A stretch of 64,000 nt of DNA from Escherichia coli (GTDB taxonomy: Bacteria; Pseudomonadota; Gammaproteobacteria; Enterobacterales; Enterobacteriaceae), in assembly GCF_003334765.1 (NCBI RefSeq), contig NZ_QOWT01000017.1, one strand, 5' to 3'. Position numbers and translations under genes: made by a program. The notes beneath the pieces are model-generated. The model saw nothing but the letters and a program-made list of their open reading frames with translations. It had not been told where the DNA came from and ran no database searches. This document shows positions 2,751 through 24,944 of the stretch, piece after piece (within the stretch, counting starts at the first letter, position 1; every line of letters starts with the position of its first letter).

Positions 2751-4081
2751 CACGCCAGTTTCAGATCCCGGGTCATGTTTTCCACGTTGTTTTCGTGGAT
2801 CACCACGTTGTCTTCGATACGAATGCCGCCGAACGGTTTCAGTGCTTCAATTTTCTGCCAGTTGAAGTGCTTGCTGAACTGCCCTTCACGCCACGGTGCC
2901 AGTAGCGATTCGATGAAGTAGATACCCGGTTCGATGGTTAACACCATGCCCGGCTGGAGAATACGGGTGCAGCGCAGGTACGGATATTTTGCCGGTGCCG
3001 CGAGGTGCGTACCGCTATCATCCTGCATAAAACCAGCGACGTCATGCACCTGCAGGCCCAGCGGATGGCCGATACCATGCGGCATAAACGGCCCGGTAAG
3101 ATCGTTTTCGACCATCGCTTCTTCACTCATATCGGTGATGATTTGATGTTTACGCAGCAGTTTGGCGATGCGCTGATGGAACTGGATGTGGTAATCCACA
3201 TAGCTGACGCCTGCTTTCATGGTGGCGATCAGCGCCAGTTGTTCATCATTAACGTCCTTCACCAGCTGCGCGTAGTCGTTGTCACTTTTTGCCGACCAGG
3301 TACGGGTCAGGTCAGCCGCATAGCCGTTATATTCTGCCCCGGCATCCAGCAGGAAGCTGCGCATCTCTTCCGGTGCCTGATGGTCCAGTTTGGTGTAATG
3401 CAGTACCGCAGCGTGTTCGTTAAGCGCCACAATGTTGCTGTAAGGTACGTCGGTATCACGATGACCGGTCGCGGTCAGATAGGCAATGTTGATATCGAAC
3501 TCGCTCATGCCAGAACGGAACGCTTCTTCTGCCGCGCGGTGACCGTTGACCGCCATTTTCTGCGCTTCACGCATACAGGCCAGTTCGTACTCAGTTTTGA
3601 AGGAGCGATAGTAATGCAGGTAGTCGATAACCCCTTTCGGGTTGATGTTGCTGGCCTCAATACCCAGTTGCAGCGCACGTTCCGGCACCGGACCGATATA
3701 ACCGATATTGCCGCGCGCAGCAGGCAGCAGGCTACCAATGCCATCGGCTTTCGGCAGCGCGATCACTTCCACATCTTCAGTCCAGAAAGAGGTCGGCAGC
3801 GGTTCGACGTTGTGCCAGTAATCAACCGGCAGATAGAACCACAGTTTCGGCTTGTTCACGCCATCCACCAGCAACCAGCAGTTTGGCACCTGAGTTACCG
3901 GCACCCACGCTTTGAATTGCGGGTTCACTTTAAACGGATAGGGATGATCGTCGAGAAAAACATTGAACAGCTCGCCGGAGTGAATAAGTAACGCATCCAG
4001 CTTGAAGCGCGCCAGCGCATCGCGAGTCCGTTCTTGTAAGGTAGCTATATGATTTTTATAGAGCGAGGCCAGTGATTCCAT
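2750..4081 (-). CDS. pepQ: Xaa-Pro dipeptidase (prolidase)
   Basis: 443-aa ORF with M24 metallopeptidase features; divergent from fadB. Confidence 0.92.
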
Positions 4082-19829: not shown

Positions 19830-22091
19830 TTACCCCCGACGCAAGTTCTGCGCCGCCTGCACCATGTTCGCCAGTGCCGCGCGGGTTTCTGGCCAGCCGC
19901 GCGTTTTCAGGCCACAGTCCGGGTTGACCCACAGGCGCTCTGCCGGAATGCGTTTTGCCGCTTTCTTCAGCAAGGCTTCAATCCATTCCACGCTCGGTAC
20001 GTTTGGCGAGTGAATGTCATAGACGCCAGGACCGATTTCATTTGGATAATCAAACTCTTCAAACGACTCCAGCAACTCCATGTCGGAACGCGAGGTTTCG
20101 ATGGTGATGACGTCTGCGTCCAGCGCCGCAATCGAATCCATGATGTCGTTGAACTCGCAATAACACATGTGAGTGTGGATTTGTGTGTCATCTTTCGCCA
20201 CGGCGGCGTTGATACGGAAGGCCTCTACGCCCCACTGGAGATACGCATCCCAGTCGCTACGACGCAGCGGTAAACCTTCGCGCAGCGCCGGTTCGTCAAT
20301 CTGGATGATGCCAATTCCAGCGGCTTCCAGATCGGCCACTTCATCACGCAGCGCCAGCGCAATCTGTTTGGCGATGGTTTCACGGCTGACATCTTCACGC
20401 GGGAACGACCAGCAGAGTATGGTCACCGGCCCCGTCAGCATCCCTTTCACCGGTTTGTCGGTCAGCGATTGCGCATACTTCGCCCACTCCACGGTAATCG
20501 GTGCCGGGCGGCTAATGTCACCAATGACAATCGGTGGCTTCACGCAGCGGGAACCGTAGCTCTGTACCCAACCGTTTTGCGTAAAGACAAATCCGTCGAG
20601 GTGCTCGCCAAAGTATTCCACCATGTCATTACGCTCGGCCTCGCCATGTACCAGCACATCCAGTCCCAAACGTTCCTGCTCAACAATGGCCTGCTTGATA
20701 TGTTCCGCAATGCCCGTGCGGTAGTTGTTGGCGTCGAGATTGCCCTTTTTGAAATCCAGACGCAGGGTACGAATTTCCGTGGTTTGCGGGAAGGAACCAA
20801 TCGTGGTGGTCGGCCACGCTGGCAGTTTAAAACGCGCACGCTGGGCTTCAGCACGCACTTCATAGACATTCGCACGCTGGCTGTCCTGGGCGGTGATCGC
20901 CGCCAGACGCTTTTCTACCGCCGGATTATGTACGCGGGTAGAGTGACGACGTGCCTGAATCGGGGCGCTCCACTCTGCCAGAGCTGCCGTGTCACCACTG
21001 TTCAGCGCATCGCGCAGCAGTGCCAGTTCATGGCATTTTTGTAGGGCGAAGGCAAACCAGCTTTTCACTTCTGCATCAAGACGCGTTTCCACGCTCAGGT
21101 CGATGGGGCTGTGCAGCAACGAGCAGGAAGATGCCACCCACAAATCACGTTTGCCGACAATGTCCTTAATTTGCGCATATTTCTCGGTAAGATCGGCGCG
21201 CCAGACGTTACGACCATTGATCAGACCCGCAGACAGCAACCAGTCAGAAGGCAGGCGCTTGTGCAGTTCAGCAACGTCATCTTTACCATGTACGAGGTCA
21301 ACATGCAGACCCTGAACAGGCAGCGCAGTAATCGTGTCGAGATTTGGCGTTACGCCTTCAAAATAGGTGGTCAGCAGCAGTTTCACCTGTCCCTGGAGCG
21401 CGTCGTAAGCGGGTTTGTATGCGTCCAGCCACGCCTGTGGTAGTTCCAGTACCAGCGCGGGTTCATCAATCTGTACCCACTCGATGCCGCGTTTCGCCAG
21501 TTCTGCCAGCACTTGCTGATAAACCGGCAGAATGTCGTTCAGCAGGCTCAGGCGGTCAAATTGTTCACCTTTCACTTTCCCCAGCCACAGCCAGGTAACC
21601 GGCCCCAGCAGCACAGGTTTCACCTTGTGGCCCAGCGCCAGCGCCTCGTCCACTTCGTCCAGCAGCTGCGTCCAGGTCAGTTTGAACTGTTGGCCTTTAA
21701 CGAACTCCGGCACCATGTAGTGATAGTTGGTGTTAAACCATTTGGTCATTTCCGCTGCCGCCGCAGGTTCGCCAGTCGGCGCACGTCCACGACCAATACG
21801 GAACAGGGTGTCGATATCTACCGAACCATCTTTGTTCTGATGACGCGCCGGAACGTTACCCAGCAGCAGACTGGTGGTCAGTACATGATCGTACCAGGCA
21901 AAATCGCCCACCGGCAGCAGGTCGATACCCGCTTGCTTTTGTTGATCCCAGTGACGAGCACGCAATTCACGCCCTACCGCCAGCAGTTCTTCACGCGTGG
22001 AGTTCCCCGCCCAATAACTTTCTTGCGCTTTTTTCAGCTCGCGACGCAGGCCAACGCGAGGGAAACCGAGGGTGTGATTCAATATTGTCAT
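19830..22091 (-). CDS. metE: Cobalamin-independent methionine synthase
   Basis: 753-aa ORF, recognised MetE. Confidence 0.96.
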
Positions 22092-22240
22092 TTTTTCTTC
22101 CTCTAATTATATGTAAATCCTATGGATTTTGAATTTAGGGAAGGCGGCAAGTTTATTCATCCCCGGGAGCTTACTGAAGTAAGTGACCGGGGTGGAGAAA
22201 CGCAGCCAACGCACCATAAATTTAAAAGACGAAGGATTTT

Positions 22241-22264
22241 AGCCGTCCAGATGTTTACACATCC
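22241..22264. promoter_or_regulatory. Candidate MetJ operator (three tandem degenerate met boxes) in the metE-metR divergent promoter region
   Basis: Tandem 8-mers AGCCGTCC AGATGTTT ACACATCC, each 5-6/8 matches to AGACGTCT. Confidence 0.45.
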
Positions 22265-22327
22265 ATAATTGGCGGTTACTGTATATTCCTCAAGCGCAAA
22301 TTATTCATGCCGAAGTGAAGGACTTTC

Positions 22328-23281
22328 ATGATCGAAGTAAAACACCTGAAAACGCTACAAGCGTTGCGGAACTGCGGCTCGCTCGCAGCCGCTGCGGCGA
22401 CGTTGCATCAGACGCAATCCGCCCTGTCTCACCAGTTTAGCGATCTGGAACAACGCCTTGGCTTCCGGCTATTTGTGCGTAAGAGCCAGCCGCTACGCTT
22501 TACACCGCAGGGAGAAATCCTGTTGCAACTGGCAAACCAGGTACTGCCGCAAATTAGCCAGGCCCTGCAAGCCTGCAATGAACCGCAGCAGACGCGTCTG
22601 CGCATTGCCATTGAGTGCCATAGCTGTATTCAGTGGCTGACACCCGCGTTAGAAAATTTCCATAAGAACTGGCCGCAGGTAGAGATGGATTTTAAATCGG
22701 GCGTGACATTTGACCCGCAGCCCGCCTTGCAACAGGGAGAGCTGGATCTGGTAATGACGTCCGATATTCTGCCGCGCAGTGGCCTGCATTATTCGCCGAT
22801 GTTCGACTATGAAGTGCGTCTGGTGTTAGCACCTGACCATCCACTGGCGGCGAAAACGCGAATTACACCGGAAGATCTCGCCAGCGAGACGCTATTAATT
22901 TATCCGGTGCAGCGTAGTCGACTGGATGTCTGGCGGCATTTTCTTCAGCCGGCAGGCGTCAGCCCGTCACTGAAAAGCGTCGATAACACCTTATTGTTGA
23001 TTCAGATGGTTGCCGCGCGGATGGGTATTGCCGCGCTACCGCATTGGGTAGTAGAGAGTTTTGAGCGCCAGGGTCTGGTGGTGACCAAAACCCTGGGCGA
23101 AGGCTTGTGGAGCCGACTGTACGCCGCCGTGCGCGATGGCGAGCAGCGTCAGCCAGTTACGGAAGCGTTTATTCGCTCAGCGCGCAATCACGCCTGCGAT
23201 CATCTGCCGTTTGTGAAGAGCGCGGAGCGACCCACTTACGATGCACCCACAGTGAGGCCAGGATCACCAGCGCGCCTGTAA
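22328..23281 (+). CDS. metR: LysR-family transcriptional activator MetR
   Basis: 317-aa ORF with N-terminal HTH, divergent from metE. Confidence 0.95.
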
Positions 23282-24068
23282 TAAACGTTGGCCAGTGCGG
23301 CTGTTGGTGCCAGATAGCCAGGTTTACCAGCAGCCCTGCCGGAACGTGCATATTATTCATAATGCCCAGCGTTCCGGCGTCCACCTGCGTCGCGCCGTAG
23401 TTCCACATAAAGTAGCCAATCCCGGAAGCCACCACGCCAAGAAACACCAGAATGCCCCATTGCAGCGTGGTTTGCGGCATTTTCTGCGCATTTCCCAGCA
23501 AGAACCATGCAATCACTGCCACCAGAAACGCGCCAAGATAGAACCACGCAAAGGCGTTATGCTGTGGCATCGGGCGAGTTTCCATCAGGCGTTTGTAACC
23601 CACCATGCCAATGGCAAAAGTGATATTGGAGAGTTGCACCAGCAGCAAGCCAGTCCAGAAATGGTCGGTGACCTGATCATAGCGAATAATCCCGGCACCA
23701 ATCACCGCCAGCAAGGCGCTAAAGGCATAGCCCCAGCGCAGACGGCGCTTACTCATGATGTCATAAATCAGCGTGATGTAGAGCGGCGTCAGCACGGTGA
23801 ACAGCAGCAGCTCGGAAACCGTCAGGTAGAGATAAGCGCGGAAACTCAGCATATACATCACGCCAAGCTGCATCGCGCCCACCAGCATATACAGGCCGAC
23901 CGTTTTCAGGCTATTGCCACGGGTACGCAGAAACGGCAGAAAAACGAGTGCCGCCAGGCCAACGCGCACCAGCACCGCAAAATAGCTATCGACGTGCCCC
24001 GCAAGGTACTCGCCATAAAAGCTAAAGGAGAAGGCCCACAGAATCGTGGTGATGATAAGTAGCGCCAC
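23169..24068 (-). CDS. yigM: EamA/DMT-family inner membrane transporter (biotin transporter YigM/BioP)
   Basis: 299-aa 10-TM ORF; 3' end overlaps metR 3' end by 113 nt on the opposite strand. Confidence 0.85.
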
Positions 24069-24143
24069 AATGGAAAACTCTTTGATTAACGGGTATCCAT
24101 TGTAGCGAAGTATCAGGTTGACAACTGACCAAATAAAGAACGA

Positions 24144-24944
24144 TTACGATAAATAGAGTTTACGCAGATAATGCGGCACCGCGTCGTCGGCATTAGTACC
24201 AATCACTTCCAGCTCGGGATGAAGGTCTTTCAGACGCTGGTGCGCACTGCCCATAATGCAGCCTTTCCCCGCCATCGACAGCATTTCGGCGTCGTTCATC
24301 CCGTCACCAAACGCAATACAATCCTTCAGGCTGTAGCCCAGTTTCTTCGCCACCGCTTCCAGCGCATGGCCTTTTGAAACGCCGCCCGCCATCACTTCCA
24401 GACAGGTTAAGGTAGAGAAACTGACGTTGACGCGATCGCCCCAACGAGCGTTAATCGCCTGCTCCAGCGGCAGCAGTTGTTCATGGGAATCGCAGGTGAA
24501 GAACACTTTGCTGACGCCTTCCGGCTCCAGTAATCCAGGCTCATACAGCGCATATTGGAACACCGCTTCTTTAAAAAAGCGCATCTCTTCCGGGCGATGG
24601 CGATTCATAAACCATTCGTCGTCGCGATAAACGTTAGTAATGATGTCCGGATTGTCGTTGACTACGCCAAACAGATCGCTGGCAATGTCGCGATCCAGGT
24701 TATGAGCAAAAATCAGATTACCATCCAGATCGTGAACGCGCGCACCATTGGAGGTAATCATGTAAGACTTAATCTCCAGATTATCGCGAATTTGCCCCAC
24801 ATCAACGTGGTGACGACCGGTCGCAAACACAAAGTTGATGCCGCGCGCGGTGAGCAGCTTCAGAGTTTCTTTGGCGTAAGGGGATAACGTATGGTCGGGA
24901 GAAAGTAACGTGCCATCTAAATCAGACGCAACAACCTGGTACAT
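24144..24944 (-). CDS. yigL: HAD-family sugar/pyridoxal phosphate phosphatase
   Basis: 266 aa from MYQVVASDLDGTLL (HAD motif I); track ORF extended 42 codons upstream. Confidence 0.88.
   Translation of the reverse strand: MYQVVASDLDGTLLSPDHTLSPYAKETLKLLTARGINFVFATGRHHVDVGQIRDNLEIKSYMITSNGARVHDLDGNLIFAHNLDRDIASDLFGVVNDNPDIITNVYRDDEWFMNRHRPEEMRFFKEAVFQYALYEPGLLEPEGVSKVFFTCDSHEQLLPLEQAINARWGDRVNVSFSTLTCLEVMAGGVSKGHALEAVAKKLGYSLKDCIAFGDGMNDAEMLSMAGKGCIMGSAHQRLKDLHPELEVIGTNADDAVPHYLRKLYLS

Follow-up and report, generated by a model that had tools for sequence, protein, structure and literature searches.

Must a long overlap between two convergent genes be constrained by both of them? The question is raised by metR and yigM (bioP), which run tail to tail in the window analysed here, a stretch of 64,000 nt from Escherichia coli, and whose coding sequences end inside each other (Table 1).

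Reality and conservation of the overlap

Both open reading frames are genuine, with thousands of homologues carrying the expected Pfam domains; PDB entry 5FO5 comprises residues 1-92 of E. coli MetR, and the function of BioP as a biotin transporter is given in the passages of Côté et al. (2016, PMC5120140) that concern yigM. The same two coding sequences with the same 113-nt overlap are found in the RefSeq/PGAP annotation of other E. coli strains, MG1655 included (RefSeq; bioP at 4011076..4011975 (+), metR at 4011863..4012816 (-)), which bears out the original prediction that each gene ends within the other, and the metR-yigM region is present in 5424 of 5426 complete E. coli genomes. The overlap is a deterministic feature of the annotation, to the existence of which chance is irrelevant, though chance explains its length.

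Table 1. Features of the metR-bioP locus (positions are those of the window)
Feature	Position	Strand	Description	Basis
metR CDS	22328..23281	+	LysR-type regulator MetR, 317 aa, ATG start	ORF list; PGAP/RefSeq; homologues named MetR
yigM (bioP) CDS	23169..24068	-	DMT/EamA-family biotin transporter, 299 aa, GTG start	ORF list; annotation; PF00892 homologues
Convergent CDS overlap	23169..23281	both	113 nt; metR codon positions 1, 2 and 3 lie opposite yigM positions 1, 3 and 2, respectively	ORF coordinates
Conserved stem-loop	23113..23156	-	13 nt past the bioP stop, within metR codons 262-277, without a U-tract	
bioP stop (TAA) and Glu299	23169..23174	-	Opposite MetR F281-I282-(R283); local site, likely under double constraint	
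Zone A	23174..23215	+	End of the MetR folded domain (residues 283-296) dictates the sequence; BioP tail 285-299 passive	pi
Junction	23216..23227	both	MetR K297-E300 opposite BioP A281-S284, relaxed in both frames	pi mostly 0.2-0.5
Six near-invariant bases	23228..23233	both	MetR R301-P302 opposite BioP W279-V280 (and the first position of A281)	pi 0.00-0.03 throughout
Zone B	23234..23281 (about 23232-23282)	-	BioP TM10 end and HRKW motif (residues 263-278) dictate the sequence; MetR tail 303-317 passive	pi
Candidate Rho loading region, bioP transcript	23000..23140	-	Downstream of the bioP stop	C 0.36-0.39, G 0.19-0.21
Candidate Rho loading region, metR transcript	23310..23570	+	Past the metR stop, antisense to bioP	C/G ratio 1.4-1.8

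We surveyed 80 species-level genomes of Enterobacterales, a sample outside which the Erwiniaceae, Morganellaceae and Budviciaceae lie. The overlap measured 113 nt in 58 species, 116 nt in 7, 95 nt in 9 and 98 nt in 3, and was thus, as had been predicted, much longer than usual (95-116 nt in 77/80 species). Three species fell outside these values: one had a premature yigM stop (50 nt of overlap), one had an aberrant locus, and in Serratia sp. PL17 the pair was separated; there, 33 nt with a new hairpin inside lie between the genes and MetR has retained Arg-Pro though no longer overlapped at that point. In 77/80 species the yigM stop occupied the identical site and the stretch from one start codon to the other was free of indels, and the geometry was kept across Enterobacteriaceae, Yersiniaceae, Hafniaceae and Pectobacteriaceae. 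MetR is 317 aa long in Enterobacteriaceae and Yersinia but slightly shorter, at 311-312 aa, in Rahnella, Dickeya and Pectobacterium; YigM homologues have 299 aa. Homologue alignment had been suggested as a means of detecting a protein that ends upstream of the overlap, and neither does so (MetR 311-318 aa, YigM 299 aa). One locus (L083) taken for a deep-branching YigM (57% identity) was actually a Dickeya-like locus with assembly frameshifts, and does not widen the taxonomic range.

metR and bioP are two real genes on opposite strands, their functional cores abutting essentially without a spacer, and their 113-nt tail-to-tail overlap is real and old. The overlap itself is already known: all E. 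coli annotations contain it, and it has been mentioned in published work (Côté et al., 2016; ExcludonFinder, 2025). In its passages on the gene, the former paper states that yigM substantially overlaps metR and that metR deletion disrupts yigM (PMC5120140). The partition of constraint and the embedded hairpin reported below appear to be undescribed.

Constraint is divided between the two genes

To apportion constraint, we compared diversity (pi) per site among 74 species between windows in the overlap and non-overlap windows of the same gene, with statistics that are only partly corrected for phylogeny. In zone A, pi at metR codon positions 1/2/3 was 0.084/0.017/0.429, like that of non-overlap metR (third positions 0.439), while the BioP tail read from the other strand (codons 284-299, 23172-23219) had a position-2 pi of 0.393 against a maximum of 0.259 in non-overlap bioP windows. 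Zone B was the mirror image: bioP codons 263-279 gave 0.180/0.117/0.454, similar to the remaining bioP (position 3: 0.477), and the metR position-2 pi of 0.48 exceeded that of every non-overlap metR window. Synonymous-site variability was not reduced for either gene in its zone, apart from 23170, 23173 and 23228-23233. Positions 23174-23215 evolve as metR alone and about 23232-23282 as bioP alone; most of the overlap evolves under one gene, and each tail is set by its partner's core. The original prediction that the overlap constrains both C-termini therefore fails over most of its length, where site-by-site diversity gave no measurable double constraint.

These zones coincide with the ends of the protein cores. 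Aligned similarity of MetR to the solved MetR-type domain 4AB5 stops at residue 296; the folded domain ends at ~296 and is followed by the conserved Arg301-Pro302. An AF2 model of MetR from a shallow alignment had a mean pLDDT of 40 and was unusable for judging disorder of the tail. The AF2 model of BioP (pLDDT 90.8) places the last transmembrane helix, TM10, at 259-283, with pLDDT reduced to 68-72 over residues 281-299, and in distant YigM homologues similarity ends at ~275-283, beyond which the tails are short and unrelated. The last BioP TM helix and the HRKW motif end at ~279-283.

The stops, too, are written by the partner. By sequence logic, MetR Phe281-Ile282 fixes the bioP stop, as TTY followed by A always reads as a stop on the opposite strand. 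The metR stop is spelled by BioP Ile263-Thr264 or Phe262-Ile263, and its position varies (MetR of 311, 312, 317 or 318 aa), following BioP codons 263-264 and 268-269. With an antisense-phase stop frequency of 0.044 per codon, the mean read-through is 20.7 codons and the probability of at least 17 codons is 0.46; the tail lengths are unremarkable, as for random read-through of ~21 codons. Shorter BioP proteins exist as well: one of 278 aa in one E. coli lineage, which arose through the metR-synonymous change P302 CCC>CCT, and others of 284-285 aa in Kluyvera, Citrobacter portucalensis, Salmonella Gaminara and P. fontis. With the essential sequence of one gene spelling the loose C-terminal tail of the other's protein, true double coding is scarce in the overlap.

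Sites probably constrained from both sides

Double constraint was confined to a few sites. T occupied both metR third positions (23170 and 23173) opposite the bioP stop and Glu299 in 78/78 species, where 2.9% of other metR third positions were invariant and adjacent invariant pairs numbered 0 among 278; this site is likely doubly constrained. The six bases of 23228..23233, coding R301-P302 on one strand and W279-V280 on the other, are probably under constraint from both genes. Finally, synonymous codons that would create a stop in the partner's frame were avoided: metR V296, when before a codon starting with A, was GTT/GTC in 1/25 species, against about 26-40% expected, and bioP V268 was the stop-creating GTT/GTC in 1/69, against about 35-42%. 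Since such codons are under-used and the bioP stop with Glu299 is invariant, some selection for the tails or tail ends is possible.

These local signals, together with the high conservation of both protein lengths and a BioP tail that looks conserved in protein alignments, could be taken as true dual coding, with both tails functional and purifying selection acting in both frames throughout the 113 nt. However, synonymous diversity of the dominant gene is unreduced in either zone, second codon positions in the tail frames are more variable than any window elsewhere in the same gene, and the conserved look of the BioP tail reflects MetR positions 1 and 2. Shortened tails also persist in several lineages and the length of the MetR tail depends on the family, and we consider dual coding throughout the overlap unlikely.

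A stem-loop of the bioP transcript within metR

Among 336 RNAalifold windows covering both strands, the stem-loop that follows the bioP stop ranked first (-18.9; runner-up -10.6). The minus-strand dG was -26 in E. coli (z -2.4), -26.7 in Yersinia (z -4.6) and -29.1 in Pectobacterium (z -3.8), and the plus-strand versions were weaker in all three. Over 79 sequences, 95.7% of cells were paired on the minus strand versus 84.4% on the plus strand, and the minus strand was more stable in 56 of them, a strand preference that is real and moderate. Double-change cells in the stem numbered 35, versus 10.5 in shuffles; positions 23152 and 23117 covaried through at least 7 independent events, each being the other's best-correlated column of 713. 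In metR, R263 was written with the rare Arg codons CGG/CGA in 63/74 species versus a 20% background, and A266 with GCC/GCT in 65/74 versus 42%. Shuffles, covariation and codon bias show that the pairs are kept by compensatory changes beyond composition, and the stem-loop, which pairs better on the bioP strand, appears from these alignments to shape synonymous codon choice in metR. Serratia sp. PL17 provides a natural control: with the genes separated, its counterpart of this hairpin has decayed (dG -19.1, z -0.7).

We rejected the reading of this element as an intrinsic terminator. A GC-rich stem-loop is present but a U-tract is absent on either strand, the 3' flank of the stem being CUCCACAAGCC, and a consensus scan returned 0 terminator-like sites in 22000-24400. 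The earlier statement that the overlap leaves no room for terminators is right in that there is zero intergenic space and no canonical intrinsic terminator, but misleading, as the coding sequence of a partner gene can itself house 3'-end signals. Because it lacks a U-tract, the stem-loop may be read as a stabiliser of the 3' end after Rho termination.

Other structures were discarded. A minus-strand hairpin at 23066-23100 (dG -23 in E. coli) had no consensus structure across species, and plus-strand hairpins at 23295-23384, after the metR stop, had stems that were broken or invariant through BioP coding, with no covariation. Rfam gave no match in the overlap; its two hits, both sub-threshold, fell between metE and metR.

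Transcript ends

As both stops are embedded in the partner gene, the two transcripts cannot avoid overlapping in antisense. At a minimum, the final 113 nt of either one are complementary to the other, and RNA-seq work lists bioP-metR as a convergent excludon, in agreement with the predicted reading of each gene into the antisense strand of its partner. We propose that the bioP transcript would be terminated by Rho in the C-rich region antisense to metR, and that its RNA would then be trimmed back to the stem-loop, which would protect its 3' end. The candidate loading regions of Table 1 stand out by C-rich, G-poor composition, a weak criterion given that the antisense strands of genes are generally C-rich. 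Supplementary file 2 of Adams et al. (2021) reports a bicyclomycin-sensitive Rho region for yigM at MG1655 4011704 (+) (score 5.07, p 1.3e-12), a coarse signal from 800-nt windows whose peak precedes the bioP stop by 271 nt. The searched text of their Term-seq supplement has no metR entry and none at 40120xx near the hairpin; bioP was possibly poorly expressed there.

The metR transcript is probably terminated by Rho as well, within the region antisense to bioP; cross-species comparison in RNAalifold windows found no conserved structure in 23310..23570 (+). The literature searched contained no experimental 3' end for metR and nothing specific on yigM antisense transcription, a yigM terminator or Rho at yigM.

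Origin and maintenance of the overlap

Beyond the end of its core, each frame continues into the partner's antisense strand and halts at the first stop there. The arrangement may have been born by the loss of a spacer or of the original stops. The overlap would then persist as a ratchet, because the genes could be parted only by duplicating the segment they share, which Serratia possibly illustrates. In Serratia, the MetR-tail DNA scored 26 against the ancestral shared segment, with a shuffle maximum of 27, a result that is suggestive only; we do not count duplication there as supported. Taken as a whole, the explanation we favour is that the overlap consists of two free-riding tails (~16-21 codons), a 6-nt doubly constrained junction and a doubly constrained bioP stop/Glu299, and we hold it to be probable.

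Alternatively, the overlap might be kept as a regulatory device, an excludon, in which convergent transcription and an RNA duplex make metR and bioP mutually antagonistic and tie biotin uptake to methionine/SAM control. Biotin synthesis consumes SAM, which makes a methionine-biotin link plausible. The antisense overlap is obligatory by sequence logic, the arrangement is conserved over four families and the bioP 3' end carries a conserved RNA element. The part of the ExcludonFinder paper (2025, PMC12288877) that deals with E. coli places bioP-metR in the core excludon list from 58 transcriptomes, but any pair with overlapping coding sequences would qualify trivially. Moreover, the absence of a spacer explains the conservation equally well, the genes are separated in Serratia, and neither reciprocal-expression data nor such regulation was found in the literature searched; we regard this reading as quite unlikely. 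It is to our mind just as doubtful that the stem-loop and the obligatory antisense overlap together form a selected post-transcriptional coupling of the methionine/SAM regulator with biotin uptake, and that the overlap is maintained by this coupling and not by the ratchet. If so, the coding sequence of a transcription factor would also serve its convergent neighbour as a 3' regulatory region.

That one open reading frame truly ends upstream, through a sequencing error or an over-extended call, has next to no chance of being correct: an older Salmonella MetR length, which we take to be 276 aa, would fit it, but 3' ends are set by stop codons, independently of start choice, and the stops are identical in 5424 E. 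coli genomes and 77/80 species. Most long overlaps in prokaryotic annotations are spurious, yet Pallejà et al. (2008, PMC2478687) accept some convergent long overlaps as real, and homologue and locus comparisons rule out the artefact here, short of proteomic evidence for other C-termini.

Free-riding tails, the reading we prefer, make this locus a clean worked example of a long, deeply conserved overlap that need not imply double coding constraint, since each tail is carried by the core of the partner, whose conserved dipeptides fix where it stops. Edits or deletions in the last 113 nt of metR or bioP strike both genes, and the passages of Côté et al. (2016, PMC5120140) on yigM report that the Keio metR deletion acts as a bioP mutant. 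Even a synonymous substitution in metR can cut BioP short, which has happened in a natural E. coli lineage. What is possibly new is a bioP 3' stem-loop written into metR synonymous sites, whereby RNA structure appears to bias codon choice in a gene on the opposite strand; if confirmed, it would locate the 3'-end signal of a gene that has no intergenic DNA to hold one.

Comparison with known systems

Côté et al. (2016) and ExcludonFinder (2025) deal with the identical gene pair and overlap, which the latter lists as a convergent excludon. Relative to the passages of those papers on the pair, the constraint by gene, the hard-wiring of the stops, the natural truncations and the stem-loop are found only here. 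Like excludons in general, metR and bioP are convergent genes with necessarily overlapping transcripts, but here the coding sequences themselves overlap and not just the UTRs, and the likeness is one of gene arrangement, the defining feature of excludons being antagonistic expression with RNase III processing.

The pair also resembles the conserved long convergent overlaps of Rogozin et al. (2002), as cited in Pallejà et al. (2008, PMC2478687), in which genuine opposite-strand genes share >60 nt at their 3' ends and the overlap is conserved among related genera; the literature ascribes their origin to 3' extension after stop loss. Whereas most of the real cases in Pallejà et al. occur in very close species, the present one spans at least four families. 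It further differs from long convergent overlaps in that constraint is partitioned, with a switch at ~23216-23233.

As in intrinsic or bidirectional terminators between convergent genes, a hairpin lies near the stop of a convergent gene, but at metR-bioP it has no U-tract on either strand and is not intergenic. Intergenic hairpins are present in Serratia sp. PL17 and beside a yigM homologue in another genomic context (L084). The closest parallels in structure to the bioP 3' end are perhaps the Rho transcripts trimmed to a protective stem-loop in the cases presented by Dar and Sorek (2018, PMC6061677), which share with it a GC-rich hairpin without a U-tract soon after the stop, a C-rich, G-poor untranslated stretch beyond the hairpin and bicyclomycin-sensitive termination reported for the gene. 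The bioP transcript differs from those cases in that the hairpin lies within the coding sequence of another gene, whose codon usage it appears to shape.

Conservation of the overlap and of both C-termini

The genes metR, encoding the LysR-type methionine regulator, and yigM, currently named bioP after its biotin transporter product (Côté et al., 2016, PMC5120140), converge and share their 3' ends. From their coordinates it follows that metR codon position 1 lies opposite yigM position 1, 2 opposite 3, and 3 opposite 2. The 113-nt overlap originally predicted is borne out by the ORF coordinates, RefSeq annotation and a comparison of loci from 80 species. RefSeq carries an identical CDS pair with an identical overlap in the E. 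coli strains examined (in MG1655, bioP at 4011076..4011975 (+) and metR at 4011863..4012816 (-)), and the region is present at ≥95% identity in 5424 of 5426 complete E. coli genomes, the window being E. coli K-12-like.

Both proteins passed the homologue test of their C-termini proposed with the prediction. YigM has 299 aa in essentially every close relative, and MetR has 317 aa in Enterobacteriaceae and Yersinia and 311-312 aa in Rahnella, Dickeya, Brenneria and Pectobacterium. We fetched metR-centred loci from 80 species-level Enterobacterales genomes and located both stops in each. The yigM stop fell at the identical base, with no indel between the two start codons, in 77 species, the overlap measuring 113 nt in 58 species, 116 nt in 7, 95 nt in 9 and 98 nt in 3. 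Because these features recur so widely, the overlap is real, and it is common to Enterobacteriaceae, Yersiniaceae, Hafniaceae and Pectobacteriaceae. The exceptions were Pectobacterium fontis (premature yigM stop, 50-nt overlap), Enterobacterales bacterium AwEntero (L069, an aberrant locus) and Serratia sp. PL17.

Features of the metR-bioP pair, with nucleotide diversity (pi per site) at codon positions 1/2/3 of the gene named
Feature	Coordinates	Strand	Content	pi 1/2/3
metR	22328..23281	+	317-aa ORF	
yigM/bioP	23169..24068	-	299-aa ORF	
Shared segment	23169..23281	both	113 nt	
metR, non-overlap				0.115/0.047/0.437
yigM, non-overlap				0.180/0.082/0.470
Zone A, metR	23174-23215		codons 283-296	0.084/0.017/0.429
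Zone A, yigM tail	23172-23219		codons 284-299	0.121/0.393/0.046
Junction	23216-23227		12 relaxed bases	
Junction	23228-23233		six nearly invariant bases: MetR R301-P302 opposite BioP W279-V280	
Zone B, metR	23234-23278		codons 303-317	0.162/0.480/0.130
Zone B, yigM	23232-23282		codons 263-279	0.180/0.117/0.454
Stem-loop	23113-23156	-	13 nt past bioP stop, within metR codons 262-277	

Serratia sp. PL17 (L081, 3385-3600) was the sole sampled species in which the genes are separated, by a 33-nt spacer that carries a new hairpin (dG -16). Its bioP end is displaced and BioP ends shortly past the VAP motif (...WVAPKIISK), while MetR is a 316-aa form whose tail DNA is weakly similar to the segment shared in the ancestral arrangement, a hint that a duplication undid the overlap.

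Several irregular sequences were also encountered. In AwEntero (3420-3630) the overlap is altered in both frames, metR extending to 3622 and yigM homology stopping at residue 292, which may point to an indel or to a decaying gene in a symbiont. Two MetR variants, P0006 (Citrobacter braakii, 323 aa) and P0090 (332 aa), have an unrelated tail beyond approximately residue 297, consistent with frameshifts at the overlap junction; these may be genuine or may stem from assembly errors. Two 591-aa proteins (P0416 and P0418, from the same cluster as P0196) would suit, by length alone, yigL (266 aa) fused by read-through to yigM (299 aa) across a 75-nt spacer in some assemblies. The metR-bioP query matched E. 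coli strain Z135-6 (NZ_CP159632.1) in two pieces with 39% coverage, and the annotation there, 'hypothetical protein | LysR family transcriptional regulator | bioP', suggests that metR is interrupted.

Partition of constraint

The original prediction held that the overlap constrains both C-termini. A gap-free 1741-nt alignment of 74 species argues against this, as third-position diversity of the governing gene is unreduced in both parts of the overlap, a handful of sites excepted. Zone A evolves like metR alone: its metR third-position diversity ranks at the 45th percentile among 14-codon metR windows outside the overlap, and second-position diversity in the BioP tail exceeds that of every non-overlap yigM window (maximum 0.259). 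The converse holds in Zone B, governed by yigM alone, with yigM third-position diversity at the 28th percentile of non-overlap windows and MetR-tail second-position diversity above every non-overlap metR window (maximum 0.237). With the same few exceptions, double purifying selection was not detected across the overlap, and the apparent conservation seen when BioP tails are aligned as protein reflects MetR codon positions 1 and 2.

The switch of constraint falls where the folded parts of both proteins end. The alignment of MetR to the solved MetR-type regulatory domain 4AB5 ends at residue 296; in the AF2 model of BioP (pLDDT 90.8) TM10 ends at residue 283, with pLDDT 68-72 beyond, and similarity to distant YigM homologues ends at residues 275-283, their tails being short and unrelated.

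Stop codons and tail lengths

In this phase an antisense stop arises where TT, CT or TC closes a sense codon and the next one begins with A, and MetR Phe281-Ile282 (TTY ATH) therefore spells the bioP stop in every case. The metR stop is spelled by BioP Ile263-Thr264 (ATT/ATC then A), with an obligatory back-up one codon later at Phe262-Ile263, which accounts for the TAATAA found there as well as for the 116-nt variants. Overlaps of 95 and 98 nt arise when BioP residues 268-269 are Ile-Ile (ATY ATY), or Val-Ile using GTT. Across 49 long ORFs of the window, stops occur in this antisense phase at 0.044 per codon, giving a mean read-through of 20.7 codons and chance probabilities of 0.46 for ≥17 codons and 0.38 for ≥21. 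The MetR tail runs 21 codons past residue 296 and the BioP tail 16-20 codons past residues 283 or 279. Tail lengths are those predicted by chance, and once the cores abutted, an overlap of around 110 nt needs no special explanation.

Some residual constraint from the tails is nevertheless pointed to by three observations. All 78 of 78 species have T at the adjacent metR third positions 23170 and 23173 (Phe281 TTT, Ile282 ATT), compared with 2.9% invariance at other metR third positions and no adjacent invariant pair among 278; on the bioP strand these two sites form the centre of the stop, which is TAA and never TGA, and of the final codon, Glu299. The six bases at the junction are nearly invariant, and Serratia MetR still has the Arg-Pro encoded by them although nothing overlaps it there. 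Synonymous codons that would create a stop are possible at two places only, and they are rare at both: GTT/GTC is used in 1 of 25 species at metR V296 before an A-starting codon (26-40% expected) and in 1 of 69 at bioP V268 (35-42% expected), phylogeny being uncorrected in both comparisons.

Natural truncations do occur. BioP has 284-285 aa in Kluyvera, Citrobacter portucalensis, Salmonella Gaminara and P. fontis, and 278 aa in one E. coli lineage (L087 and L088; seen in 119 index blocks), with a 50-nt overlap, owing to a C>T change at 23233 that is silent in metR (P302 CCC>CCT) and converts BioP Trp279 to a stop. On balance, the tails are passengers, for the most part dispensable, perhaps under weak selection against truncation.

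A conserved stem-loop on the bioP strand within metR

RNAalifold, run on both strands of the whole 1741 nt, placed the stem-loop first among 336 windows by far (-18.9; next best -10.6; mean -2.7 ± 3.0). Its minus strand is the more stable in E. coli (dG -26.0, z -2.4; plus strand -18.1), Yersinia similis (-26.7, z -4.6; plus -22.2) and Pectobacterium (-29.1, z -3.8; plus -21.8); in Serratia sp. PL17 it has decayed (dG -19.1, z -0.7). Over 14 stem pairs in 79 distinct sequences, 95.7% of cells are standard pairs, against 92.2 ± 0.4 in shuffles and 26-45% in slid controls, and double changes number 35 against 10.5 ± 2.6 in shuffles. Plus-strand pairing is lower (84.4%) because many pairs are G-U.

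The pair 23152/23117 (metR Q275 CAG/CAA and L264 CTG/TTG) switches from C-G to U-A in 14 species (Fisher p 7e-10), with at least seven independent changes by parsimony on a neighbour-joining tree built with the hairpin columns left out. These columns are each other's best correlate among 713 variable columns (phi 0.77; next best 0.63), so base composition alone is an insufficient explanation. Codon choice in metR is skewed as minus-strand pairing requires: Arg263 is a rare CGG/CGA in 63 of 74 species (20% background) and Ala266 is GCC/GCT in 65 of 74 (42%). Conservation across species was not found for adjacent candidate hairpins. As the stem is followed by no U-tract, it is not a canonical intrinsic terminator.

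Transcription and 3' ends

Neither intergenic DNA nor a hairpin-plus-U-tract was found on either strand, so the two transcripts must be mutually antisense over at least 113 nt. The predicted transcription into the partner's antisense strand follows from the absent spacer, and bioP-metR is listed in ExcludonFinder's E. coli core set of convergent excludons (PMC12288877). The accompanying claim that there is no room for terminators is not a necessary consequence of lacking a spacer and an intrinsic terminator, and it overlooks the conserved stem-loop.

Beyond this stem-loop the bioP transcript is rich in C (0.36-0.39) and poor in G (0.19-0.21), and a bicyclomycin-sensitive termination region is reported for yigM at 4011704 (+), with a Rho score of 5.07, albeit from 800-nt windows (Adams et al., 2021). 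The bioP transcript may thus undergo Rho-dependent termination within antisense metR and then be trimmed back to the stem-loop, which would protect its 3' end; the searchable text of the Adams et al. supplement contains no mapped 3' end there. No conserved 3' structure was found for metR, whose transcript, judging from composition, might be terminated by Rho within the C-rich antisense-bioP RNA. Upstream, the metE-metR intergenic region (22113-22287, +) gave sub-threshold Rfam matches to Ysr49 (27.7 bits) and V_AS5 (26.7 bits; gathering thresholds 95-96 bits), probably chance or distant similarity in a leader region.

Comparison with known overlaps

The observation behind the original prediction is confirmed and its interpretation partly supported. 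The overlap itself is already known from RefSeq, the excludon listing and Côté et al. (2016, PMC5120140), who describe a substantial yigM-metR overlap and a metR deletion that acts like a yigM mutant. In the literature searched, as far as its text was accessible, we found no description of the partition of constraint, the hard-wiring of stops by dipeptides or the bioP stem-loop in metR. These are modest additions to a known overlap, and only the embedded stem-loop merits experimental work. By the criteria tested metR/bioP is a genuine convergent overlapping pair, and long conserved convergent overlaps are a recognised though rare class (Pallejà et al., 2008, PMC2478687).
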